Shown: positions 1,490-64,000 of the stretch, in pieces | Position numbering within the stretch: position 1 is the first letter of the stretch | Layout of the letters: every line of letters starts with the position of its first letter | Source of the DNA: Candidatus Levyibacteriota bacterium | GTDB taxonomy: Bacteria > Patescibacteriota > Microgenomatia > Levybacterales > UBA12049 | DNA: 64,000 nt | NCBI GenBank assembly: GCA_963716145.1 | Contig: OY970292.1 | Span: forward strand, 533,171 to 597,170 | Direction: 5' to 3' | The notes under the pieces: generated by a model | Seen by the model: only the letters and a program-made list of their open reading frames with translations | Databases searched by the model: none | What the model was told of the DNA's origin: nothing | Translations under genes and position numbers: made by a program

Positions 1490-1993
1490 ATGGCAGAAAA
1501 CGATGGAGACAATCCAAAAGTAGTCCCGAAAGGGACTAACGAAGGACCCAAACTGGAGCAACCAAAGCATCTTGATCCTCCCGCGAGTAAAACAAGCGCA
1601 CTCCCCGGAGCTGATGCTCCAACTGTAAACCCTGCTGCTGATGCCGCAGAGATAAGAGAGCTAAGAGATGAACTCTTAGCGATGGCAAGATTCGGCAATG
1701 AAGAGGATGCACGAGTTATCAATGATGAACTTGACCGCTTCATAGGACAAAAACAAGCAGAAGGAGGAAACCCTATTGCCGAGGATACTTCGGCCGCCAA
1801 AGGTGAGGCCGCAGAAAATGGACTACACGATGACACAAGTTCTCCCCCTGAAAAAACAGACGATGTGCCTAATCCACCAGATCCAGACGCAGCTTCTACG
1901 CAGACACCTGCTTTGCTAACTGGCGATGCTGCTACAGCAAAAGGTCAACCCCGCAGCAGTGTAATAGTACATGCGGAAGCCACCCCGCGATGA
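1490..1993 (+). CDS. hypothetical acidic Ala/Asp/Pro-rich protein
   Basis: ORF with low-complexity acidic composition. It overlaps the next ORF out of frame. Confidence 0.3.
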   Translation: MAENDGDNPKVVPKGTNEGPKLEQPKHLDPPASKTSALPGADAPTVNPAADAAEIRELRDELLAMARFGNEEDARVINDELDRFIGQKQAEGGNPIAEDTSAAKGEAAENGLHDDTSSPPEKTDDVPNPPDPDAASTQTPALLTGDAATAKGQPRSSVIVHAEATPR

Positions 1994-2993
1994 ACCCACA
2001 AGGCCAACCGATGAAGGTATTTTACTTCCGCACACTGAGGTTTATCCGCATATTGAAATACCTAGTAATGCAACTATTCATATTCTTTTTGGCCGACACC
2101 ACACGGCAGCAGATATAGGTGATATTGATAGATTTACAGCTCTTGTTAGAGGAAGCGATATTGTTATTCCTGAGGTAGCAGGATGGGAAGAGTCGGGACA
2201 AAAACTATATAACAGAGTAGCGAAAGGAGACTATGATGCTCGACAAAGACTAATAGCTGCTTTTGAAGGCTTAGCTAGGCAGGGAATGCCTGGTGCTGAA
2301 TTTGAGATAGAAGTAGTTAAAGCTCTATATAGCAGCGGTGCTCAAATTGCTTACGTTGATCTGCCCAAATCACATCCTGATGCTACACTAGACCCTTATA
2401 AGTTTATTGGAAAATTCCCGATTATAGGAAGTTTTGAAGAAGGAATTACCCGTTTGGATTCCAATATGCGAAAAGGTGCAAAGCATCAAAGATCAAGAGA
2501 GATAACAATTATAAAAACCCTTGGCGAATTACTCCCTAAAGCTATATCAAAACATCCTAAGCTAAAAGATAAGCCGGATGCCAAGGTTTTAATGTGGCTT
2601 GGTAAAATTCATACTCCTGTATTTGATGCTTTGCACAGAGATCACGGAGCTCAAGTCAGTAGTGAGTTTTATAAAGAACCACAACCTGACAATATTAGGG
2701 AGTTAGTGCTTGATTATGCTACGGGAGAAATTGACAGCCTGCCGCAAGAGGAAAGAAGGCTTGCTCAAGGAAGAGTACTTGCTGAAGTTGCAGCATCCAC
2801 GGCATTTCGTGGACTAGGTATTGATCCCTCACGATATACACAGGATGAGGTTTCCGCCAGAACTGCCAGAGTGATTAAACCTCTCTCTCTTGAGCAACTA
2901 GCAGAACTTTATAATGCTATTGCAAATAATCAAAGAGATAATATGACAGCATTAGGTTTCCAGACCTCATTAATAAGAGAATTTGCCCGATAG
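1971..2993 (+). CDS. hypothetical protein
   Basis: 340-codon ORF with native-like codon usage. No recognisable motifs. Confidence 0.4.
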   Translation: MRKPPRDEPTRPTDEGILLPHTEVYPHIEIPSNATIHILFGRHHTAADIGDIDRFTALVRGSDIVIPEVAGWEESGQKLYNRVAKGDYDARQRLIAAFEGLARQGMPGAEFEIEVVKALYSSGAQIAYVDLPKSHPDATLDPYKFIGKFPIIGSFEEGITRLDSNMRKGAKHQRSREITIIKTLGELLPKAISKHPKLKDKPDAKVLMWLGKIHTPVFDALHRDHGAQVSSEFYKEPQPDNIRELVLDYATGEIDSLPQEERRLAQGRVLAEVAASTAFRGLGIDPSRYTQDEVSARTARVIKPLSLEQLAELYNAIANNQRDNMTALGFQTSLIREFAR

Positions 2994-3086
2994 CTTTTAT
3001 CTATCCCCATTGTCCCCATAGGTGCGATGTATTGGATAAATTTGTTCAGTATTGCCTAAATTCTCAAAGTATTGTATATTATTGTT

Positions 3087-3210
3087 CTGGGGAGCTCGTT
3101 GTTCGGGCTGAGAGTCCGCCGGTAGGCGGAGACCCATTGAACCTGACTTGCCCCGCGAAGTCCGCCAGTTGGCGGACGAAGTGGGTCCGGATAATGCCGG
3201 CGGAGGGAAA
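3087..3210 (+). promoter_or_regulatory. TPP (THI-box) riboswitch
   Basis: Conserved THI-box blocks are present: GGGGAGC...CUGAGA, a P3 hairpin, ACCCAUUGAACCUGA, then CGGAUAAUGCCGGCGGAGGGAA. These sit immediately 5' of the ThiY-like ATG at 3213. An extra hairpin (gtccgccagttggcggac) that nearly duplicates P3 is inserted before GGAUAAUGCC. Confidence 0.8.
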
Positions 3211-3212
3211 CT

Positions 3213-4226
3213 ATGAAAAAACTCATTCTTCTTTTTGTTATTCTAATAATTGTTCTTTTTGCCCTCTTTCCCTTTCAGAATCAATCTCCCAAGAACCAAG
3301 AACCAAAAACCAAGAACTTTACTATCGCTCTTGACTGGACCCCCAACACCAACCACACCGGTATATATGTAGCACTGCAAAAAGGTTGGTACAAAGAGCA
3401 AGGCCTTGATATAAAAATTCTCCCCTACTCGCAAGTATCAGCTGATACTCTGGTATCCACAGGTAAAGCTGACGCCGGTATCAGTTCAACCGAAAATATA
3501 GTAGCGGATGCAGCGACAGGAAATCCTGTCGTCTCAATTGCCGCGATAATTGCGCATAACACATCAGCACTTGTCGCCCTGTCTGACAGCGACATCAAAA
3601 GCCCCCGCGACTTGGACGGAAAAATCTATGGTGGATTCGGATTGCCTTATGAACAAGCTGTGGTTAGCGAAGTGATTAAGCATGATGGCGGAACAGGCGA
3701 ATTTAAAAATGTAACACTTACCACCTCTGCCATGCAGGCTTTGGAGAGTAAAAAAATTGATTTTGTCTGGATTTTTATGAGTTGGGAAGGAATTGAGGCA
3801 AACCGTGCCAAACTTGGTTTGAAAGTTTTCCCTATCCCGATGTTTGGTATCCCCGATTATTCAACACCAAATATAATAACTTCTAAAAAAACGCTTGAGG
3901 AGAAAAAATTGCTAATCAAAAAATTTATGAACGCAACAAAACGTGGATTTGAATATGCAAGGATTCATCCCAAAGAATCTGCTCAGATTCTTATTGATGC
4001 TACGCCAAAAGGCACTTTTCCTGACACTGGGCTGGTCACTGACAGTCAAATATTCCTAAGTCCGCTTTATGCTGACCCTGGGAAAGCTTGGGGACTGCAG
4101 GACAAAGCCATGTGGCATAATTATCCGAAGTTTATGCTCCAGGCAGGAGCTGTAACTGACGTAGAGGGTAAAAAAGTGACCAAGTTGGATTTAGAAAGTT
4201 TGTATACCAATGAATTTTTGCAATAA
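3213..4226 (+). CDS. ABC transporter substrate-binding protein, NMT1/THI5-like (ThiY-like HMP/thiamine-precursor binding)
   Basis: Signal/TM N-terminus. NMT1/THI5 domain pattern (ALDWTPNTNHTGIYVA...GKADAGISS...DLDGKIYGG). It is preceded by the TPP riboswitch. Confidence 0.8.
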   Translation: MKKLILLFVILIIVLFALFPFQNQSPKNQEPKTKNFTIALDWTPNTNHTGIYVALQKGWYKEQGLDIKILPYSQVSADTLVSTGKADAGISSTENIVADAATGNPVVSIAAIIAHNTSALVALSDSDIKSPRDLDGKIYGGFGLPYEQAVVSEVIKHDGGTGEFKNVTLTTSAMQALESKKIDFVWIFMSWEGIEANRAKLGLKVFPIPMFGIPDYSTPNIITSKKTLEEKKLLIKKFMNATKRGFEYARIHPKESAQILIDATPKGTFPDTGLVTDSQIFLSPLYADPGKAWGLQDKAMWHNYPKFMLQAGAVTDVEGKKVTKLDLESLYTNEFLQ

Positions 4227-4288
4227 ATTTTCATTTTTCAATTTAAAATTTGAAATGAAACTTAAATGTTTAAAAATTTAAATTTGAA

Positions 4289-4309
4289 CCTTGCCTGCCG
4301 GCAGGCAGG
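4289..4309. repeat. GC palindrome cctgcctgccggcaggcagg, copy 1
   Basis: Perfect 20-nt palindrome 60 nt after the thiY-like stop. A near-identical copy lies at 43253-43272. Confidence 0.6.
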
Positions 4310-4392
4310 AATTCATTGAAAATTGTCCATTCGACAAGCTCAGGATCCTGAGTGTATCGAAGGAAAAATTTCAAATTGAAAATTATATTAAT

Positions 4393-5154
4393 ATGTCGGA
4401 TGAAATTCTTCGTATCTCGCGCTTAAATAAAATATTCCCAAACAATCTACAAGCTCTCAGTGAGATCGCGTTTTCTGTCAAAAAGCAGGAATTTGTGAGC
4501 ATAATCGGCCCATCAGGATGCGGCAAAAGTACACTTTTTAATATCCTAGCGGGGGTTGAAAATCAAACAACCGGCGCGGTTGAATTAAATGGAAAAACTG
4601 TCGCAAAGCGAGCTGGATTATTTGGCTACATGCCCCAATCCCCTCTTCTTCTTCCCTGGAGAACAGTTCTTGAAAATGTAATACTGGGCCAGGATGTACT
4701 GCGCGTACCACGAAAAATCTCCAAACAAAAAGCAATGAAAATTCTGCAGCAATTTGGTCTGTCTGAATTTGCTGCTAACTATCCAAATACTCTATCAGGA
4801 GGAATGAAGCAGCGAATTGCGCTGATCCGTACAGTCCTTTTTCAAAAAGACTTCCTTTTGCTTGATGAACCTTTTGGGGCTCTGGACTCACTCACCCGAT
4901 TATCCTGCCAGCTGTGGCTACTGGAGCTACAGAAAAAGCTCAAACCGACAATTCTTTTCATAACTCACGACGTGCGGGAAGCCATCTTCTTATCAGACAC
5001 TATCTATGTACTAAGTCCACGACCCGGGAAAATTATTAAAAAATTTGAGGTAGGACTTCCCCGACCAAGACAAAAAGAACAACTAGCATCACAACTTGCT
5101 GTCAGGTTGGAGCAGAAAATTCTGTCGCACCTTTTTAACGAAAAAAGTCTATGA
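4393..5154 (+). CDS. ABC transporter ATP-binding protein (NitT/TauT family)
   Basis: Walker A GPSGCGKST, signature LSGGMKQR, Walker B LLLDEP. The start is moved to the ATG at 4393; the track start at 4291 lies inside a palindrome. Confidence 0.85.
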   Translation: MSDEILRISRLNKIFPNNLQALSEIAFSVKKQEFVSIIGPSGCGKSTLFNILAGVENQTTGAVELNGKTVAKRAGLFGYMPQSPLLLPWRTVLENVILGQDVLRVPRKISKQKAMKILQQFGLSEFAANYPNTLSGGMKQRIALIRTVLFQKDFLLLDEPFGALDSLTRLSCQLWLLELQKKLKPTILFITHDVREAIFLSDTIYVLSPRPGKIIKKFEVGLPRPRQKEQLASQLAVRLEQKILSHLFNEKSL

Positions 5155-5900
5155 AACTGAAAAAAATCGCGCAATTCGGACCAAGCATTATTTTTCTCTT
5201 CCTAATTTTTCTGGTATGGGAAATTTTTGCTGAGTCTAATCAAATAAATAGCCGCTTGCTTCCCGCCCCATCAAAAATTGTTGCTGCACTGGTTAATAAT
5301 TGGAGCATCATCGCTCCCCACGCTTTCCAAACAATTCTTGAAACTATTATCGGCTTTGTAATCGCAATAATTCTTGGCGTAATTGTAGCCCTACTTTTGG
5401 ATTTCTCCCCCTGGGTGAGACGGACACTCTATCCCCTTCTTGTCACTTCTCAAACAATTCCCATGATCGCGCTTGCTCCTCTGCTGCTTGTATGGTTCGG
5501 GTTTGACCTTTTACCCAAAGTGATTATGGTTATATTGTTTTGCTTTTTCCCGATCGCTATCGCGACAGCCGACGGACTTGCTTCAACTGATAGTGACCTT
5601 TTAAAACTTCTCAAAAGTATGAACGCATCCTATTTTCAAACATTAAGATACGTCAAATTTCCAGGAGCTCTTCCGCAATTTTTTGCAGGTACTAAAATCG
5701 CAGCGACATACAGCCTTACAGGCGCTATTGTTGGTGAATATGTGGGGGCCTACCGAGGACTTGGGATTTATATGCAAACGATGAGCAATTCCCAGGCAAC
5801 AGTTCTTGTCTTTGCCGCGATTGTGGTAACAACACTGCTTAGTTTGGCGTTATTTGGAGTTATTATGCTGATTGAAAAAATCTGCACACCTTGGAATTAA
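5151..5900 (+). CDS. ABC transporter permease (NitT/TauT family)
   Basis: Polytopic membrane protein. ATGA start/stop overlap with the ATPase gene. Confidence 0.8.
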   Translation: MKLKKIAQFGPSIIFLFLIFLVWEIFAESNQINSRLLPAPSKIVAALVNNWSIIAPHAFQTILETIIGFVIAIILGVIVALLLDFSPWVRRTLYPLLVTSQTIPMIALAPLLLVWFGFDLLPKVIMVILFCFFPIAIATADGLASTDSDLLKLLKSMNASYFQTLRYVKFPGALPQFFAGTKIAATYSLTGAIVGEYVGAYRGLGIYMQTMSNSQATVLVFAAIVVTTLLSLALFGVIMLIEKICTPWN

Positions 5901-6000: not shown

Positions 6001-6072
6001 GCCGAGATAGCTCAGCGGTAGAGCAGCTGTTTTGTAAACAGCAGGTCCGGGGTCCGAATCCCCGTCTCGGCT
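6001..6072 (+). tRNA. tRNA-Thr (anticodon TGT)
   Basis: Cloverleaf folds by hand: acceptor gccgaga/tctcggc, D-stem gctc/gagc, anticodon stem gctgt/acagc with loop tttgtaa. T-loop reads tccgaat. Confidence 0.75.
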
Positions 6073-6170
6073 CTGTCTTCGTATAGCGAAGAACTTAGAA
6101 CAAAGAACTAAAAACAAAAAACGTTTTCTTAGTTCAAGGTTCATAGTTCTATGTTTTGCGTAGCAAACTA

Positions 6171-6254
6171 GCCAGATTCGCATAGCGGCAATTGCACCTC
6201 GCTGTAGACGAGGCGACCGTAAGGTCTACGGGGGTTCGAGTCCCTCATCTGGCA
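6171..6254 (+). tRNA. tRNA-Tyr (anticodon GTA), long variable arm
   Basis: Acceptor gccagat/atctggc, anticodon loop ctgtaga, 16-nt variable arm, T-loop ttcgagt. Confidence 0.75.
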
Positions 6255-6357
6255 CTCTATTCAGCTACGCTGAATACTAACGAACCAAGAACTGAAAACT
6301 CAGAAAGAAAATTTTCCTAGTCCTTGGTTTTTAGTTTTGAGTTCTGCTTTGCAGAAT

Positions 6358-6430
6358 GCCGAAGTGGCTCAGTGGTAGAGCAAGTCATTGGTAATGACTA
6401 GATCATGGGTTCCGATTCCCATCTTCGGCT
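6358..6430 (+). tRNA. tRNA-Thr (anticodon GGT)
   Basis: Acceptor gccgaag/cttcggc, anticodon stem agtca/tgact with loop ttggtaa. The T-loop appears to be 8 nt (ttccgatt). Confidence 0.7.
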
Positions 6431-6444
6431 CAATAATAATTCAT

Positions 6445-7650
6445 TTAACCTGCTATCTCAGCCCCATTAGGATGATTTCTCGTGTTTAGAATTAGAGTAA
6501 TGTAAAGAATGATTATCAAGCTAAAAGCTGCAATTTCAAAACTAATTTTAAAAATACTGACCAACAGTAACAACACTACGTATAATGGCGCGCGTAAAAG
6601 CATAGAGATTGTATTGCGGTGAGTCGAGGCAGCAAGTGAGCCTATCTTAAGACCTCTGGATGTTATATTTGTATCGATGGGAATTGCTACCAAAAGAGAA
6701 AATACTCCGACAATAAATACAGAGATATAGTATAGGAGCGTATCGGTAACTGTAAGACGAAGAATCCAAGTACAAGCAATTATCAGACTTCCTACGATTA
6801 TCATCCGCGTTCCGTATTTTTTTGTTAACTTGCCTGCTAAATAAGAAAAAGAGGCAGTGCTTAGGGAGACTATCACAGGAACTGCGGCAACCGAACCGAC
6901 AGTACCAATTACGGTAAATATAAAAAGCGGCCAGATAATCCCGTCGACCTCACTATGCAATCCCCATAAAGCAAGCGTCAGAAAATTTTTTCTTTCTTGC
7001 GGTGCCTCGAAAAATTCCCTGGAGGATAATTTTTTTTCATTTGGTAAATCGCGAACGTGACGCATTTTAAAAAGAGGAATGATAGACAATATGAAAATAA
7101 ATACGCTTGCAACAGACAAATAACCTTTACCCAATGTGATGAGTATAAGAGCGCCCACAATTGGCCCTGATATATTTGCCAACTGCCGAACTCCCTCCAG
7201 AGCACCGACTGTTTTTCCTGGATCAATCTCCTCCCTATTTATTTCAATAAAAAGGTATACATGAGATATCCAAAAAAGCGTATCATATACTGCGGCTAGA
7301 GTAGCTAAAAGCCATAAAAGAGGCCAGTTGTCAGAAGGTAACGCCCCAAGCAGTCCAAAAAATGCGATAGTCGCAACTGTCCCCCATATCATTACTTTTC
7401 GTGCTCCAATTTTCCGAACAACCCGCTCAACTACAAAATTCAGGGGAATATCAATTGCGTTGTATATAAGATAAAAAATAATTACCTCACTTAATGAATA
7501 TCCTGACTCAAGAAGGAGAATCGGCACAAAAATCGAGATAAGCGATCGGGCCAAGGTATGAAGCCATATAGCCAATTCAAAAAAGTGAAGGTCGGGGTGT
7601 TTGGAAAATCTATATAAATGGTGCCTGTTGTAAAAATGAGCAAGCTGCAT
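6445..7650 (-). CDS. MFS-type membrane transporter
   Basis: 401-aa polytopic hydrophobic protein with about 12 predicted helices. Confidence 0.55.
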   Translation of the reverse strand: MQLAHFYNRHHLYRFSKHPDLHFFELAIWLHTLARSLISIFVPILLLESGYSLSEVIIFYLIYNAIDIPLNFVVERVVRKIGARKVMIWGTVATIAFFGLLGALPSDNWPLLWLLATLAAVYDTLFWISHVYLFIEINREEIDPGKTVGALEGVRQLANISGPIVGALILITLGKGYLSVASVFIFILSIIPLFKMRHVRDLPNEKKLSSREFFEAPQERKNFLTLALWGLHSEVDGIIWPLFIFTVIGTVGSVAAVPVIVSLSTASFSYLAGKLTKKYGTRMIIVGSLIIACTWILRLTVTDTLLYYISVFIVGVFSLLVAIPIDTNITSRGLKIGSLAASTHRNTISMLLRAPLYVVLLLLVSIFKISFEIAAFSLIIILYITLILNTRNHPNGAEIAG

Positions 7651-8025: not shown

Positions 8026-8097
8026 AGGGACGTGGTGAAATGGTTATCACAGCAGTCTCCAAAACTGCTTTTCCCAGTTCGAGTCTGGGCGTCCCTG
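8026..8097 (+). tRNA. tRNA-Trp (anticodon CCA)
   Basis: Acceptor agggacg/cgtccct, D-stem gtga/tcac, anticodon loop ctccaaa, T-loop ttcgagt. Confidence 0.85.
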
Positions 8098-9266: not shown

Positions 9267-9644
9267 ATGAACGACTCAACCCACAAATTCGTCGCTGTGC
9301 TGAATAAAAAAGTGGAGACAGGACGCCTTATGAACGCGCTTGCTCACATGTCTGCCGGCTTTTCGGCAATGTACCCTGAAAAGGGAGAACTGAAGTTTGA
9401 TAACTATTTTGACAAAGACGGAGGTATGCACCCAAGCCTTTCTGACAATCCGTTTATTATTTTATCGGCTGATAACTCCAATCAAATCCGAACGTTTCGA
9501 AACGCGTTGAAGGAAAACAATATCTTATTTAATGACTTTACCAGCACCATGGTTGAGGAACCGCACAAGAACAAAAGGAACGGACGAGTAAAACACCTGA
9601 GCTGGAACTTGAATACTGGGGAATCTGTACTTTTGGAGAAATAG
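9267..9644 (+). CDS. DUF2000-like hypothetical protein
   Basis: The K.V.VLNK...NALAH pattern resembles the DUF2000 family. The match is weak. Confidence 0.35.
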   Translation: MNDSTHKFVAVLNKKVETGRLMNALAHMSAGFSAMYPEKGELKFDNYFDKDGGMHPSLSDNPFIILSADNSNQIRTFRNALKENNILFNDFTSTMVEEPHKNKRNGRVKHLSWNLNTGESVLLEK

Positions 9645-17803: not shown

Positions 17804-18376
17804 TTATTTTGTTTTCTTTGACCTTCTAAGTAAAATTAAGCCCACAACTGAAGTATTGGCTGCAAAAACAAATAAAGGATAAGAAACTAATATTGGATCC
17901 AACTTTCCTACAGATAACGCTCCTAAAAGTCCGGCCATTGCAAAGCATACCCACGCGCTGATTGTTTCACTTTTTGGAGATTCAAAAACTTTAATGTAAA
18001 TCAGCTGATATCCAACCGCATCAATAAGAATTGTTATATAAAGCGATATGTACGCATGCTGAGTTAGATACCATAAGTACAGCCCAATTCCAGATGCCAC
18101 AAGAGCAATAATATCTCTCTTTCGGAATCCTCCAATTCCGTATTTGATTGATAAAGCAAAAATTATAAAGTCCCCTAAGATAAAAGCTACTGTAAGCCAA
18201 AGGGACCAAGTAGCTCCTTCTGCACTCTGCGCGAAAAAAGATATTATTCCAAGCATAGTCCATATGAACCAAGGTGCACATTCGGGTACTGTGGTTTTGC
18301 GAAAAATATCACGTACATATGGAGCACACCCCGCCAAAAATACAACTCCTGAGGCAATTCCCAAAAATTCCAGCAT
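17804..18376 (-). CDS. hypothetical membrane protein
   Basis: 190-aa ORF with about 6 TM segments. Confidence 0.4.
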   Translation of the reverse strand: MLEFLGIASGVVFLAGCAPYVRDIFRKTTVPECAPWFIWTMLGIISFFAQSAEGATWSLWLTVAFILGDFIIFALSIKYGIGGFRKRDIIALVASGIGLYLWYLTQHAYISLYITILIDAVGYQLIYIKVFESPKSETISAWVCFAMAGLLGALSVGKLDPILVSYPLFVFAANTSVVGLILLRRSKKTK

Positions 18377-31058: not shown

Positions 31059-31733
31059 TTATTTAGACCGTACTTGAGATTTGAAATTTGAAATTGGTAA
31101 TTTCAGTATCAATCCCCCGCTTATCAGGCCCAATCCCGCCCCCAAAATTGCACCCCCTACCACATCCGTTGTCCAATGTTCACCCAGGTAAACACGGGAG
31201 ACAAACATCACAATGTTATAACATGTTATAACGCCGATGAATGTAAATTTTAAGATTGTGCTTAATTTTTTACTCTGAAATATTAACACAACCAAGATTA
31301 TTGAAATAAAAGCTGTCCTTCCAGCATGTCCTGAGGGATAAGAATTCTCAAGTCGCACATGAAATTGGGGGAAATCAATAATATGCTTTGTTCTTAACAT
31401 AAATTGTGGAGGGGGCGCATGATCGACAAAAAATTTTCCGTATATTTCAATCAAATGAAAACCAACGTATAATCCCAAACTAACAAATCCTGCCACTATT
31501 TTCCTTGCAAAAATCAATATCACAAGTAACGCAATCGTCATCACCTCAATTTTCCCAACATCGCTAAATGTTGAAAATATATTGTCCAGCCGCCTTGGAG
31601 TTTTGTCCTGAAGACGCACTGTTGTATTGAAATCAATCGCTGTAAAGTGATTTTTGTGGACTAAGTAAGAGAATAAAATAAAGAGGAAAAAAAGGGCAAC
31701 TCCTGCCAAAATCAAAATATACTTCCTGGACAT
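31059..31733 (-). CDS. PAP2-family phosphatase
   Basis: PSGH and SRVYLGEHWTTDVVGG motifs in a polytopic protein. Confidence 0.7.
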   Translation of the reverse strand: MSRKYILILAGVALFFLFILFSYLVHKNHFTAIDFNTTVRLQDKTPRRLDNIFSTFSDVGKIEVMTIALLVILIFARKIVAGFVSLGLYVGFHLIEIYGKFFVDHAPPPQFMLRTKHIIDFPQFHVRLENSYPSGHAGRTAFISIILVVLIFQSKKLSTILKFTFIGVITCYNIVMFVSRVYLGEHWTTDVVGGAILGAGLGLISGGLILKLPISNFKSQVRSK

Positions 31734-59987: not shown

Positions 59988-61364
59988 ACTAAATCACCCA
60001 AGGCGCAATCCAAGCGACTTAAATCGAATAAAAACCAGGATACTAATTCAACCTCTTCTTCAGCTAAAAGACAATTATTTGTTTCCTCAGCGATTTTACT
60101 TTTTTTGATCCTTGGAACTATTCTTACTGTATTCTATGCTCGCGGATATAGATTTGTTTTTGGCGGGGGTGAGCCCAAACTTTCAAAAACAGGCATTCTG
60201 AACGTCACAAGTGTGCCCCAAGGAGCTCAGGTTTCCCTGGATAATCACCCAACCACGGCCACAGATAACTCAATTAATCTTGCTCCCAATAAATACACCG
60301 TAAGGATTAGCAAAGACGGCTACAATGATTGGCAAAAAGATGTTGATATAAGACAGGAAGAAGTTACCAATATAGATGCGCGGCTCTTTCCAAAAGCCCC
60401 AACGCTTCAAAGTATCTCAACTTTTGGAGTTGAACAGGCACTGGTAGATCCAACAGGCACTAAGTTGGCCTTCAAAATCGCCTCTCAATCCGCAAAGAAA
60501 AACGATGGGATATATATTTTTGATATGACCCAACGCCCCCTACCCATTCTTCAAGGCCAAAGCAGCTCCAATCAGCTAGCTGATGACAGCATTGATAGAT
60601 TCTCGAAGGCTTCGCTTTCCTTTTCGCCTGATGGTAAACAGCTTCTCGCCAGTATTTCAGCAGTTACGGAAGCTGCCAATCCTGAAGATCCCCTAGCTGA
60701 ACCTATCTTACAGCCTGAACTCTCCACTTACTACCTTCTTAAAACTGACGGATTTAATGATGTTCCGCAGGATACAACTGCGATAATTGATACGGTTTTT
60801 GAAACGTGGAAGGCCCAGCGCGCAGCCAAGGAAAAAGCAAGACTAAAGTCACTCAAACCAAAGATTGCCGAATTTAGTAAAAAGAATTTCAATATTCTTT
60901 CCTGGTCACCTGACGAAAAAAAGATCCTCTACCAGGCATCCTCCTCGGCCCAGATGCCGGTATTTATCAACCCCCGAAGAATCGGAAATAATTGGCGATA
61001 CGAGAGGCGTGACCTTAAAAAAGGAGCAATTTATGTCTATAATATTACGGAAGATCTCAATACAAGAATTGTTGACAGCATTGATGCAATTTGTACTGAT
61101 GAAGAATCAAGTTGCATTGGCGAAAATTCTACTCTGGGAAAGAATCCTTTTAGCTGGTTTCCTGATTCAGAGCACCTTATATATGTGCGGGATCGCAAGA
61201 TTAACCTTGTTGAGATAGATGGTTCCAATATGACGACTGTTTACGCCGGACCGTTTGTTGATCCTTATGTTTTTCCCTGGCCTGATGAATCTAAAATCGT
61301 AATACTTACAAATCTCGGAAACCCAACGGTGTCTCCTACCCTATACACAATAGGACTAAAATAG
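59961..61364 (+). CDS. PEGA-domain membrane-anchored protein with beta-propeller-like C-terminus
   Basis: TM anchor. PEGA pattern (ILNVTSVPQGAQVSLDN...YTVRISKDGYNDWQKDV). Confidence 0.5.
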   Translation: MQNSQMKKQTKSPKAQSKRLKSNKNQDTNSTSSSAKRQLFVSSAILLFLILGTILTVFYARGYRFVFGGGEPKLSKTGILNVTSVPQGAQVSLDNHPTTATDNSINLAPNKYTVRISKDGYNDWQKDVDIRQEEVTNIDARLFPKAPTLQSISTFGVEQALVDPTGTKLAFKIASQSAKKNDGIYIFDMTQRPLPILQGQSSSNQLADDSIDRFSKASLSFSPDGKQLLASISAVTEAANPEDPLAEPILQPELSTYYLLKTDGFNDVPQDTTAIIDTVFETWKAQRAAKEKARLKSLKPKIAEFSKKNFNILSWSPDEKKILYQASSSAQMPVFINPRRIGNNWRYERRDLKKGAIYVYNITEDLNTRIVDSIDAICTDEESSCIGENSTLGKNPFSWFPDSEHLIYVRDRKINLVEIDGSNMTTVYAGPFVDPYVFPWPDESKIVILTNLGNPTVSPTLYTIGLK

Positions 61365-61894
61365 ATCAAAAGGTAAATAAAGATATCAACAAATCTTATT
61401 CTATAAACCAGAAATATAAAAGATTAAATCCGCAAATAATCCGCTTTTAATTCTCCTCATCTGTCTTATTGATTTTTACAGTAAAGGTTCTTTGTTTGAT
61501 AATATAAAATTTTAATTTTAATAAAAATTAAATTCCTCAAATTTACAATCTTTTGTGAAAAAACGGTTGTGAAAAATAGAAAAAACACGGCATTTTTTCA
61601 TCAAAAATCCCAAACGTATTTGCCTGATTCTTATTATTAATTACTTCACAGGGGCAAAATTTGAATAATTGAGGCTAAAATACGTGAAAATAATTGAAAA
61701 CATAATGTGAACAAAAAATCAATTTATGTCTTGACAAACTTATTAATATATGTAGTAATTAATATATAGACAAAGTTGGACATCAAAGTTGGACTAGTAC
61801 AACTTTACAAAGAGCTAAGAACAGTGAACAAATAATTAAGATTTTCTCAGCTTTAAGTTCAAAATTTTAAGTATTTTAAAAATTCCTGCCCATT

Positions 61895-64000
61895 ATGACT
61901 ACCGATAAAAAGAAAGTAAAAAATTCTAAAGAGATAGTTGAGAAAGAGACGATGCCACTTGCGAGTAAATCATCTGATTCCTCTTTCAAAAAAAAGACTG
62001 ATAAAAATAAACAACGAGAGACTTCCCAAAAGGAAAACGCACAAGAGGCAGTTACGTTTACTATCCAGCAGGCCGCAGATCAATTGGGACTTTCCACCAA
62101 AACCCTCAGGCGCTGGGAAGAAAAAGGGATCATAAAAGCTCAAAGAACAGCGGGAAATCAGAGACGCTATACCTTATTGGACGTTGAAAGATTACAACCA
62201 AGAGTAAAAAAACTCTCTTCTCAACAATTTTCAAACATAGCTGAAATCCGAAACCCAAATAGCCAATTGTATCTAGAAAGCTCTTTTTCAAATGAATCTA
62301 ATCCAATAAACTCTAATGTAGAAAGAGTTAATTCACCTCCATTCAGTAAAAACACGACACGGCGTACTTTTGGTGCTGACCCAAAGGTTGGTACTAATAA
62401 TAGTTATGTCCAAGTTTCAAGAGTTGGACAAGATGATAATGTCCAAGATTTGAAAATTTCGCATAAGAGTAAGTTCAAACAAAGTACGGCACTTCTTGGG
62501 GTATTCGCAATCGTAATAATCAGCATGATTTTTTTATCCTCCCCCCACATCGCGGGAGAAACGAACAGGAGAATATTTTCTGTCCTGATTGGCAGTCTCA
62601 ATAAAGAACAGGGCGATTACCAATCAAATGTGCTATCTCCTGGAGTTCTCTCGGATACTATAAAGCTCAAAGGAATGAAGGGAGAGATAAGTTTTAACAT
62701 CCCCGCGATCTTCAATAGCAACTTAAGAGTAAACGGAGACACACTTCTCAATGGCAATGCAACAGTCTCAGGAACATTGACTGCTCCAAATATAGTTTAT
62801 AGTGTCATACCAGGTCAAAATATATCAATTTCCGGTGATCCCCAGAATCCGACAATCTCTACAGGCCCAATTGTCACCTCCTTTGCCGGCAAAACAGGAG
62901 ATCTTAAGCTGTCTGCGGGAACCGGAATAAATGTAAGTGATCTTGAAATAAGTATGAAAAATACTTCTCTGACTGTCGAGGCGGGAAGTGGCCTTTCCGG
63001 CGGAGGAAAAGTTGAGCTTGGCGGCTCAATATCGCTTGAGAATGCTGGTGTTATTTCATTGGCAGGGACGGCAAATCAAGTTCTTGTTTCGGTATCAACA
63101 GGAGACGTAACTCTTTCGCTTCCACAGGATATTGATTTGAGCTCATCCCCTACTTTTTCCAGTATTAATCTGACCAGCAATACTAATCAACTGGTTCTGG
63201 GAAGTGGCAATACCGGGACACTTACTCTCGGCACACTTACAGCAGATCGGACTTATACTTTACCAGATCTTAATGCATCAAATGACACTATTTGTTTGGC
63301 TGCTCTAGCCAATTGTTCAGGCGGGTCAGGAGGTATTGGAGGCGCGGGCACAATCAATCGGGTAGCAAAGTTCACTGCTTCCAATTTGATTGGCAACTCA
63401 AGCATAAACGACCTTGGCTCAGCAGTCGCAATGACTATAGATGCATCAGGCAACGTGGGGATTGGCACCACTACACCAACATCCTTTAAACTCGAAGTCG
63501 CAGGCAATGTAGGTCCTGAAGCTGATAACACCAGGGACTTGGGATCAGCAAGCAAAAGATGGGCAAATATTTATGGTACAAATGTCATCGCAAGCAATCT
63601 AAGTGGTGCAATCACTCCAACCGGCTTTACTCCAGGTTCCGTAGTGTTCGCAGGCTCAGGTGGTACTCTGACGCAGGACAATGCCAACTTCTTCTGGGAT
63701 GATACTAATAACAGGCTTGGGATAGGAATAACCACTCCGACCTCATCGCTGGTTGTCCAGGGTATTACTGGTAATTCCACAGCTGAATTTATAACAACTG
63801 AAAATGCCAATAGAAGACTTGTTGAGATCAGAAATTATAGCAATGGTACGGCGGGGGCGACCCGGCTGGGCATAATTAACGATGCTGGGACCGGCATGGA
63901 CATTACAGCATATGGAAGTGGCAATACCGGAACTTTTGCAGGCCTTTCTCTTGCCAACACGGTTCGTGTCAGTTCTAGTACTGCCCTTGTTCTTTATGCC
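61895..64000 (+). CDS. membrane-anchored MerR-type HTH protein with extracellular tail-fibre-like repeats (3' partial, runs off the window)
   Basis: Not in the track because there is no stop in the window. The frame is open for more than 700 codons. N-terminal MerR HTH (FTIQQAADQLGLSTKTLRRWEEKGIIKAQRTAGNQRRYTLLDVERL). TM ALLGVFAIVIISMIFL. Then repeated GNVGIGTTTPTS...L.V.G motifs. Confidence 0.55.
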   Translation, partial: MTTDKKKVKNSKEIVEKETMPLASKSSDSSFKKKTDKNKQRETSQKENAQEAVTFTIQQAADQLGLSTKTLRRWEEKGIIKAQRTAGNQRRYTLLDVERLQPRVKKLSSQQFSNIAEIRNPNSQLYLESSFSNESNPINSNVERVNSPPFSKNTTRRTFGADPKVGTNNSYVQVSRVGQDDNVQDLKISHKSKFKQSTALLGVFAIVIISMIFLSSPHIAGETNRRIFSVLIGSLNKEQGDYQSNVLSPGVLSDTIKLKGMKGEISFNIPAIFNSNLRVNGDTLLNGNATVSGTLTAPNIVYSVIPGQNISISGDPQNPTISTGPIVTSFAGKTGDLKLSAGTGINVSDLEISMKNTSLTVEAGSGLSGGGKVELGGSISLENAGVISLAGTANQVLVSVSTGDVTLSLPQDIDLSSSPTFSSINLTSNTNQLVLGSGNTGTLTLGTLTADRTYTLPDLNASNDTICLAALANCSGGSGGIGGAGTINRVAKFTASNLIGNSSINDLGSAVAMTIDASGNVGIGTTTPTSFKLEVAGNVGPEADNTRDLGSASKRWANIYGTNVIASNLSGAITPTGFTPGSVVFAGSGGTLTQDNANFFWDDTNNRLGIGITTPTSSLVVQGITGNSTAEFITTENANRRLVEIRNYSNGTAGATRLGIINDAGTGMDITAYGSGNTGTFAGLSLANTVRVSSSTALVLYA

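Follow-up and report, generated by a model that had tools for sequence, protein, structure and literature searches.

A membrane-anchored fibre protein of Patescibacteria with a MerR-type DNA-binding domain and a conserved candidate operator at its own promoter

Why should a protein built like a long surface fibre carry a DNA-binding domain at its N-terminus, and which DNA would that domain bind? The question is raised by a gene at the end of a 64,000-nt segment of contig OY970292.1 (Candidatus Levyibacteriota bacterium), referred to below as the window; positions are those of the window, and residues are counted from the ATG at 61895. The predicted protein joins a winged helix–turn–helix (HTH) of the MerR/excisionase type, a linker, one transmembrane (TM) helix and a fibre ectodomain, and an array of short conserved boxes lies between its promoter and its start codon. 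The explanation favoured here, with some reserve, is that this membrane-tethered fibre autoregulates its own promoter through binding of the tethered HTH to the box array, most probably as a repressor.

The open reading frame (ORF) begins with ATG 61895–61897 on the + strand and contains 702 codons without a stop up to the window end at 64000. A public protein, P0001 (1,094 aa, encoded on a contig of 1,142,061 bp), shows 100% identity over 100% of the window ORF used as query, and this protein record stands in for the DNA past the window end. A reading of the locus made earlier from the letters alone (the sequence-only reading) had noted that the frame runs off the window; P0001 extends it as one continuous chain, with no stop or frameshift parting the HTH from the ectodomain. 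The full protein consists of the HTH, the linker, the single TM helix and an ectodomain of >870 aa, 485 aa of which lie inside the window. Databases label the members of this family just ‘MerR family’, ‘excisionase family’ or ‘helix-turn-helix domain-containing’. The coding sequence (CDS) is divided as follows.

61895–64000, + strand: CDS of the HTH–TM–fibre protein, first 702 of 1,094 codons (ORF call and identical public protein)
62054–62227, + strand: MerR/excisionase-type winged HTH, residues 54–111 (Pfam, AF2 and Foldseek)
62228–62482, + strand: low-complexity, poorly conserved, predicted cytoplasmic linker, residues 112–196 (AF2 and family alignment)
62483–62545, + strand: single TM helix, residues 197–217 (hydropathy and AF2)
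62678–62860, + strand: conserved juxtamembrane ectodomain module (..FNIPAIF..LTAPNIVYS..G.NISISGDPQNPTIS), residues ~262–322 (family alignment A1)
62861–64000, + strand: fibre region with GNVGIGTTxP-type modules, residues 323–702 in the window and on to 1,094 (motif and repeat search)

Two direct repeats and a partial inverted copy had been noticed upstream of the gene and proposed as its operator; the repeats were confirmed at exact coordinates. The 11-mer CAAAGTTGGAC occurs without mismatch at 61771–61781 and 61784–61794. The two 11-nt arms of an inverted repeat (I23), AAAGTTGGACT at 61785–61795 and AGTACAACTTT at 61796–61806, adjoin without a gap and are 91% complementary, and the partial inverted copy as first described, gtacaactttac, sits at 61797–61808. 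Aligned with the family box, a 12-nt motif with the consensus AAAsTTGGACAw, these repeats make up three boxes in a direct–direct–inverted layout, which is also present in the related locus L087. The cis-elements of the locus are listed below; the position weight matrix (PWM) used for scanning the window was built from other loci.

61731–61736, + strand: −35 hexamer TTGACA (family conservation)
61741–61761, + strand: conserved spacer/−10 block TATTAATATATGTAGTAATTA, identical upstream of P0008, P0051 and P0004
61772–61783, + strand: box 1, AAAGTTGGACAT, perfect match to AAAsTTGGACAw (PWM rank 2 in the window, 20.0 bits)
61785–61796, + strand: box 2, AAAGTTGGACTA, direct repeat 13 nt past box 1 (exact 11-mer repeat; PWM 12.7 bits)
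61795–61806, − strand: box 3, AAAGTTGTACTA, inverted and degenerate, forming a palindrome with box 2 (inverted repeat I23)
61886–61891, + strand: CTGCCC motif, 3 nt ahead of the ATG (family-specific)
62406–62450, both strands: three boxes in the linker CDS, AAACTTGGACAT at 62406–62417 (−), AGAGTTGGACAA at 62420–62431 (+) and AATCTTGGACAT at 62439–62450 (−) (PWM)

Within the window alone, the 11-mer is statistically unremarkable save for the adjacency of its copies; the boxes owe their significance to conservation in related loci and not to window statistics. These loci were fetched by protein similarity alone, and 7-mers were counted in 58 unique 200-nt upstream regions, with expected counts derived from the rest of the same loci. 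TTGGACA was found 65 times where 2.4 were expected (27-fold) and is present in 44 of the 58 regions. The flanks outside this search seed are conserved too, AAA being present at −4 to −2 in 66–68 of 78 instances. The upstream block of P0008, P0051 and P0004, TTGACA-N4-TATTAATATATGTAGTAATTAATATATrGACAAAGTTgGACAA, is almost identical to window positions 61731–61785 (~55 nt), yet their proteins share just 31–44% identity with the window protein over the part of the N-terminus that aligns. That relatives retrieved without reference to the box also carry it at their promoters lends strong comparative weight to the operator proposal, and the family HTH would be its likely ligand.

The placement of the boxes is also regular. 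In 44 of 66 unique loci a box starts 25–49 nt after the −35 hexamer, so that the boxes would sit at or just after the presumed transcription start, downstream of the −10 element. Arrangements range from single (+) and paired (++, +−) through ++− up to +++++, and adjacent direct boxes have a 10-nt spacing in 16 of 30 cases. Clusters of at least two boxes number 57 in the 1.65 Mb of fetched DNA; 45 of them lie at family promoters and six further ones within or beside family genes. A link with the protein is indicated by the recognition helix: 52 of the 61 loci with the canonical helix SxKTLRRW[ED] carry a box, compared with one of six with a variant helix (Fisher p = 0.001, not corrected for phylogeny). 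The divergent member P0014 (L168, 1–105; recognition helix VSKDTLRRWEAKG...SGYRLY) has the helix VSKDTLRRWE and, in place of TTGGACA boxes, four TATGCA(A/T) repeats at the same location, a possible case of helix–box co-evolution.

The promoter is defined by family conservation. TTGACA is present in 65 of 66 unique family upstream regions, and CTTGACA in 45 of 58, a 42-fold enrichment. When the 66 loci were anchored on the −35 hexamer, positions 15–22 (A.ATaTgt) and 25–28 (TAAT) were conserved, giving the consensus cTTGACA-N9-A.ATATGT-NN-TAAT, in which the −10 element reads as mGTAAT (17-nt spacer) or TAATnn (19-nt spacer). In the window, where the 21-mer spacer/−10 block is unique, these options are AGTAAT at 61754–61759 (17-nt spacer, TGT before it) and TAATTA at 61756–61761 (19-nt spacer); in L084 and L085, TATAAT stands at the 19-nt spacing. 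A 19-nt spacer between −35 and −10 is a hallmark of MerR-activated promoters. A simple promoter scanner missed the TTGACA promoter on account of its atypical −10 element, and the assignment rests on family conservation instead.

Beyond the promoter array, the half-site search proposed earlier was carried out across the 64-kb window with the PWM and with TTGGACA, and it returned no other intergenic box: the other eight exact TTGGACA copies all lie within long ORFs, as judged from their coordinates and the ORF list. Five of the top 11 PWM matches fall in the fibre locus, namely those at 62406 (−, rank 1), 61772 (+, rank 2), 62439 (−, rank 3), 62420 (+, rank 5) and 61785 (+, rank 11). Three of the five form the cluster in the linker CDS, 510–555 nt into the ORF. 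In the closest relatives, L107 (near position 3030) and L175 (near 190), the linker CDS contains the identical sequence AATGTCCAAGTTT, which there, as in the window, provides the same codons for N-V-Q-V; no such cluster was found in seven more distant loci. The cluster may be an auxiliary operator for looping or a by-product of the conserved NVQV peptide. Single box-like matches at +370 to +590 in four other loci were set aside as coding coincidence, since conserved TM or juxtamembrane codons lie at or close to them; this was judged by eye from one example, the TM-coding match in L082.

The putative box-binding domain is well defined. The MerR HTH that the sequence-only reading placed at the N-terminus is recognised by Pfam as MerR (50.3 bits, cut-off 28.2, residues 56–92), MerR_1 (47.3 bits, cut-off 21.6, residues 55–119) and HTH_17 (30.5 bits, cut-off 27). 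The AF2 model, a monomer built on a 14-sequence family alignment, has a pLDDT of 88–96 at residues 51–110 (~90 for the domain) and a strand–helix–helix–hairpin–helix layout. In a Foldseek search against the PDB, the top matches were exclusively MerR-superfamily DNA-binding domains, including those of RacA, CarH, GlnR/TnrA, NmlR, BldC, SoxR and mycobacteriophage Xis, many of them solved on DNA. A61, L64, S67, T70, L71, R73, W74, R84, T85, R90 and Y92 are invariant in the 14 family members, within the near-invariant stretch ...VSTKTLRRWE..G.L.P.RT.GNQRRYT..., and residues of the DNA-contact type (R73, W74, R84, R90, Y92, K69, R72 and R91) are invariant or nearly so in the same alignment. Ahead of the domain, residues 1–53 (61895–62053) form a Lys-rich extension that most relatives do not have; the N-terminal extension of L107 is longer still (~130 aa), and the leader between box and start codon is also longer in both the window gene and L107.

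The MerR scaffold that had been attributed to the protein is present in part. The winged HTH stands; the dimerisation helix and effector domain do not. In the AF2 model, a single 18-residue helix (94–111) is followed by disorder (117–191) and then by the TM helix, with no long antiparallel coiled-coil dimerisation helix, and no C-terminal effector domain (metal, drug or redox) was found in Pfam or NCBIfam. NCBIfam equivalogs score far under their cut-offs (CueR 22 vs 147, SoxR 24 vs 117), as does HTH_BldC (28 bits vs 77); excisionase TIGR01764 stays below its own (27.4 vs 28.8). With neither coiled coil nor effector domain, and with its boxes outside the promoter spacer, the protein, which has the winged-HTH part alone, is not a canonical MerR regulator. 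Nor is it a member of the ToxR family, because its DNA-binding domain is of a different (MerR) type; a Pfam search of the protein gave no match to Trans_reg_C (OmpR/PhoB-type).

The linker, with pLDDT <50 over residues 117–191, varies in length across the family and cannot be aligned. It leads to the only strongly hydrophobic segment of the protein (194–222, Kyte–Doolittle peak 2.39), which coincides with an AF2 helix at 197–215 and corresponds to the single TM segment that had been placed near residue 200. The same was seen in 17 of the 18 homologues examined, each having one strongly hydrophobic segment between HTH and ectodomain. Since a long folded N-terminal domain precedes this single signal-anchor, and K+R are slightly commoner on its N-terminal side, the remainder of the protein past the helix is predicted to be extracytoplasmic, in an N-in bitopic topology. 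The ToxR-like layout suggested by the sequence-only reading, an HTH, one TM helix and a long ectodomain, agrees with this predicted topology.

The ectodomain begins with the juxtamembrane module (family consensus ...VLAA...F.VNVP..F...LTAPN[IV][IL]YS..G.NI.I.G..QNP.IS...; invariant residues T296, N299, Y302, G307, I310, Q317, P319 and I321), and its start was modelled with low confidence in the AF2 monomer. GNVGIGTTxP-type motifs follow at residues 520, 607, 725, 835 and 1015 and GSGNTG at residues 436 and 674; a module of ~130 aa is duplicated with 66% identity. A phmmer search against the PDB matched proteins of Bdellovibrio bacteriovorus, 8OML (1.9e-11), 8OND (bd2133; 3.8e-09), 8OJN (1.3e-08), 8ON4 (1.3e-07) and 8OL4 (5.9e-05), entries named as ‘cell wall surface anchor family’ proteins. 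The matches span residues 707–1037, just past the window and within the modules duplicated in the window part. These are MAT (‘mosaic adhesive trimer’) proteins, trimeric surface fibres that recognise prey (PMC10769870). The match of the ectodomain to End_tail_spike is weak. The long repeats once compared with phage tail fibres are real, while their closest solved relatives are bacterial surface fibres and not phage virion proteins; for the capsule-binding domains also mentioned at that stage, nothing was found in support. Going by the homology to MAT, the fibre is probably a long trimer at the cell surface, of the MAT/tail-fibre kind, and likely a host- or prey-binding adhesin of an epibiotic cell.

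The tips of these fibres vary. Peptidase_S74, the C-terminal chaperone in the S74 subfamily of MAT-type fibres, is absent from P0001 and present in several relatives, some of which end in this domain or in an H-type lectin domain. The last residues of P0001 (1038–1094, past the window), ending in ...ALAIFGGPVTLAALPASCSIEGGG, resemble part of a shaft repeat that breaks off midway, and neither S74 nor another tip domain is recognisable in them; the C-terminus of the record may be truncated or carried on in another frame.

In the mechanism that we infer from these parts, the N-terminal TM helix would anchor the fibre and, given the homology to MAT fibres, the ectodomain would trimerise on the cell surface, leaving three HTH domains hanging on flexible linkers of ~85 residues. 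The tethered domains would bind the AAAsTTGGACAw array at 61772–61806, ~+5 to +40 of the presumed start. Flexible tethers could reach sites in varied geometry, in keeping with boxes that differ in number, orientation and spacing from locus to locus; the 10-nt direct spacing would put successive sites on one helix face, as in the head-to-tail arrays bound by BldC and Xis. With boxes over the start region of a promoter whose −35 hexamer is perfect, their occupancy should block initiation, and the fibre already in the membrane, by its amount or state, would set the rate of new synthesis. In the window lineage, the second cluster, ~630 nt downstream in the linker CDS, could take part through looping. 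A further step, that the fibre is a single-polypeptide contact sensor in which engagement, tension, shedding or cleavage outside alters the occupancy of the boxes by the HTH inside, is put forward tentatively and is doubtful.

Several observations weigh against autoregulation through the boxes. About a quarter of the family loci have no exact box, and the variant-helix class amounts to just six loci in a co-variation test uncorrected for phylogeny. The placement of boxes over +1 depends on a promoter consensus with an atypical −10, and canonical MerR regulators bind within the −35/−10 spacer, not downstream of it. As the fetched DNA is biased to the flanks of fibre genes, the scarcity of clusters elsewhere does not prove a gene-only regulon. 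The boxes are also biased toward the sense orientation, which would equally fit a signal at the RNA level. In such an account, the boxes would act in the mRNA leader, as 5′ stabilising hairpins or CsrA-like GGA sites, or would bind another factor, the HTH having an unrelated role. The boxes do lie in the presumed 5′ untranslated region, mostly in sense, and direct plus inverted pairs could form hairpins. However, the window leader folds no better than shuffled sequences (z = +0.27), for which reason a structured leader RNA was rejected, and Rfam gave no match at E ≤ 1 on 61300–62000; at the gathering threshold it reported just four tRNAs far from the locus (6001–6072, 6171–6254, 6358–6430 and 8026–8097, all on the + strand). 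Moreover, it is the primary sequence that is conserved, not co-varying positions; boxes are antisense-only in four loci and upstream of the −35 hexamer in nine; direct arrays at 10-nt spacing cannot pair mutually; and variant recognition helices accompany absent or different boxes. Taken together, an RNA-level role seems improbable. Phase variation, with an invertible segment between inverted boxes and an excisionase-like HTH, was considered and rejected: no recombinase is associated, most loci have direct boxes only, and the box position is fixed relative to the −10 element.

Other explanations keep the HTH as a DNA- or protein-binding module and change its task. The protein might be a ToxR-like contact sensor with a wider regulon, in which host binding or pulling alters HTH clustering or proteolytic release and the gene's own promoter is one target among several. 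It shares its bitopic topology with transmembrane transcription regulators (TTRs; PMC10269533), and its ectodomain is homologous to prey-recognition fibres (PMC10769870), with tips that vary among relatives (S74, H-type lectin). This is unlikely in view of the near confinement of box clusters to the family's own genes in the 1.65 Mb fetched; the 64-kb window likewise contains no other intergenic box, a weak argument, being 64 kb of a 1.14-Mb genome. The HTH could instead be a tether, pinning the locus or nucleoid to the membrane in a RacA-like manner, for example to help couple transcription, translation and insertion of a membrane protein of this great size, or a protein–protein module as in RodZ, whose HTH binds MreB. 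The chromosome-anchoring RacA is indeed the best structural match, mreB is a conserved neighbour, and a published account documents transertion for membrane-bound regulators of another system (PMC9977878). Yet in 44 of 66 loci the boxes are placed exactly over core promoter and start region and not just anywhere in the locus, as transcriptional control would predict, and the conserved basic residues of the DNA-contact type favour DNA over MreB as the ligand, so that a tethering role appears rather improbable. Finally, tail-fibre-like motifs, the End_tail_spike match and the Peptidase_S74 domains of relatives might suggest a prophage tail fibre, or the chain might be an assembly or annotation fusion artefact. 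This is effectively refuted by a single uninterrupted ORF, which dozens of independent contigs share with the window, by a conserved housekeeping neighbourhood, and by viral matches that never include the full architecture, those in PHROGs being to the HTH.

Autoregulation by the tethered fibre, the explanation preferred here, can be set against known systems. TTRs are defined as single polypeptides that combine a recognised DNA-binding domain with one or more TM segments; a census of 50,302 predicted TTRs counted 386 with MerR, 350 with MerR_1 and 151 with HTH_17, MerR-type proteins making up ~1.5%, and did not mention Patescibacteria or any fibre ectodomain (PMC10269533). With a Pfam HTH and one TM segment, the window protein falls within this definition, and the conserved gene-specific promoter boxes point indirectly to regulation while membrane-bound. 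As in the TTRs ToxR, CadC and TcpP, an N-terminal cytoplasmic DNA-binding domain, one TM segment and an extracytoplasmic C-terminal domain follow each other, and DNA is presumably bound without the protein leaving the membrane. However, the DNA-binding domain is of the MerR/excisionase type and not of the OmpR/PhoB type, a fibre that measures 870 to >7,000 aa in the family takes the place of a small sensor domain outside, and, unlike for ToxR-type TTRs, no candidate targets were detected other than the promoter and coding sequence of the gene itself.

MAT proteins (Bd2133; 8OML/8OND/8OJN/8ON4/8OL4) resemble the window protein in their shaft modules (E 1.9e-11 to 6e-5), in a length of ~1,000 aa and in having variable tips, with S74 and non-S74 subtypes; tip variation in the family mirrors MAT tip swapping, and MAT too is a tail-fibre-like surface protein of a bacterium living on other bacterial cells (PMC10769870). 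For MAT proteins, expression started at residue 21, following a leader sequence, and their invariant N-terminal domain, without a solved structure, presumably binds a surface element of the diderm cell (PMC10769870). The window protein, in contrast, starts with 196 predicted cytoplasmic residues including the HTH, followed by a TM anchor and a family-specific juxtamembrane module.

Among DNA-binding proteins, the closest parallels in domain content are BldC and Xis, which likewise consist of the winged-HTH core without a coiled coil (target-normalised TM-score 0.7–0.8, root-mean-square deviation ~1.4 Å). Both bind direct-repeat arrays head-to-tail, which fits the direct box arrays at 10-nt spacing. 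They are small and soluble, whereas oligomerisation of the window protein would come from the membrane fibre. Structurally and in sequence, the HTH matches the DNA-binding domains of RacA, TnrA/GlnR and CarH best. RacA, the chromosome anchor of Bacillus subtilis, links DNA to the membrane indirectly, being soluble and acting through DivIVA; TnrA, GlnR and CarH are soluble, effector-controlled and use inverted-repeat operators of different sequence. MerR, CueR, SoxR and BmrR share the MerR/MerR_1 HTH, found above threshold, and a spacer readable as 19 nt, or as 17 nt. They differ in having a coiled coil and an effector domain, both missing here, and in the site of the operator, a dyad inside an over-long (19–20 bp) −35/−10 spacer; the conserved boxes of this family come after the −10 element.

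The family, of which 18 homologues were examined and 14 sequences aligned, has the constant order HTH, unalignable variable linker, TM helix, conserved juxtamembrane module and variable fibre. A JGI metagenome scan, seeded solely with two peptide patterns from the family alignment, yielded at least 466 loci encoding relatives; in most of the 80 loci kept, the ORF is long and has an HTH at its N-terminus. Among 1.84 billion representative proteins, a profile search returned 194 clusters (50% identity) at E ≤ 1e-30, most of which match the entire HTH-to-juxtamembrane profile, with lengths up to 7,646 aa. P0082, P0088, P0093, P0107 and others, at 5,000–7,646 aa, are giant surface proteins with a cytoplasmic HTH. 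Source labels of members are Levybacteria or Saccharimonadales, and the named members are Patescibacteria; genome matches to the fibre only come overwhelmingly from metagenome-assembled genomes of Patescibacteria. A literature search found no description of the family, its architecture or the box. The architecture joins two known kinds of molecule, membrane-tethered transcription factors and trimeric adhesive fibres.

Variants of the architecture were also seen. Two tandem HTH domains occur in L141, L151, L138, L157 and L145/L159, with P0072 and P0166 also listed, and some family representatives have 8–9 HTH-like stretches. In L082/L083, two independent metagenome contigs, an in-frame TAA replaces Gln (...SSF*GQSG...), leaving a 258-aa HTH–TM stub with the remaining fibre downstream (6001–6777 and 6979 onward); this split gene may be a pseudogene, a read-through case or a regulator-only form. 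Next to it (1547–5653) is a 1,368-aa ORF with two N-terminal Phage_int_SAM stretches (integrase core-binding type) and a Peptidase_S74 fibre domain, which would give a second example of a fibre protein fused to a domain of DNA-binding type.

The window gene is preceded by genes for a WecG-family glycosyltransferase, MreB and a PEGA-domain protein, and the same three precede the copy in L080. The F-type ATP synthase operon adjoins the family gene in L079, L080, L084 and L085, and a PEGA gene is close to it in L169. Among 2.9 million viral contigs, five matches were found, all of them HTH-only and none with the full architecture, and PHROGs returned HTH-type matches alone, with no tail-fibre family. 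Given this conserved housekeeping neighbourhood and the HTH-only viral matches, the family is chromosomal and not phage-borne.

The leader holds further family-specific signals. CTGCC[CT] followed by 0–5 nt and the start codon is present in 46 of 66 family loci in varying frame, and among the 49 window ORF starts listed, CTGCCC stands just upstream solely at the fibre gene; in L168, the motif lies 9 nt inside the ORF. It is not a Shine–Dalgarno sequence. GAGGCT(A/G) recurs in family upstream and/or leader regions (window copy GAGGCT at ~61671), direct repeats GATA(T/A)GATTATGATA(T/A)GAT lie just 5′ of the −35 hexamer in many loci (upstream regions L089–L166), and TGTGAAA/TTTCACA occurs within the spacer in family subgroups. 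In the window, GTGAA(A/C)A repeats are found at 61687, 61711 and 61824 (regions 61670–61730 and 61824–61839). A second regulator may act at the family promoters. Elsewhere in the window, TATAAT-like hexamers precede many ATGs by 6–12 nt with no visible Shine–Dalgarno sequence (for example, at 9267, 17804–18376(−), 21277, 29527, 31059–31733(−) and 43348), which suggests that leaderless or near-leaderless mRNAs are widespread in the source genome; the fibre gene, by contrast, has a leader of ~125 nt.

Episymbiotic Patescibacteria have few conventional signalling systems, and host recognition and the coupling of contact to expression in ultra-small episymbionts are largely unknown. At this locus, one chain links a fibre of the host-recognition type to a DNA-binding domain, with a sharply defined, conserved 12-nt candidate target at its own promoter; the promoter, its DNA box and the ~60-aa protein domain are each delimited. 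If the proposed autoregulation is true, the family would represent a new class of membrane-tethered autoregulator, in which a structural surface fibre ‘counts itself’ or reports its state, and the concept of the transmembrane transcription regulator would reach adhesins. The cis-element would then be usable for annotating these genes and promoters in Patescibacteria metagenomes. Should the more tentative contact-sensor extension also prove true, host contact would be wired directly to transcription in episymbiotic Patescibacteria, including by giant versions of the fibre of up to 7,646 aa.

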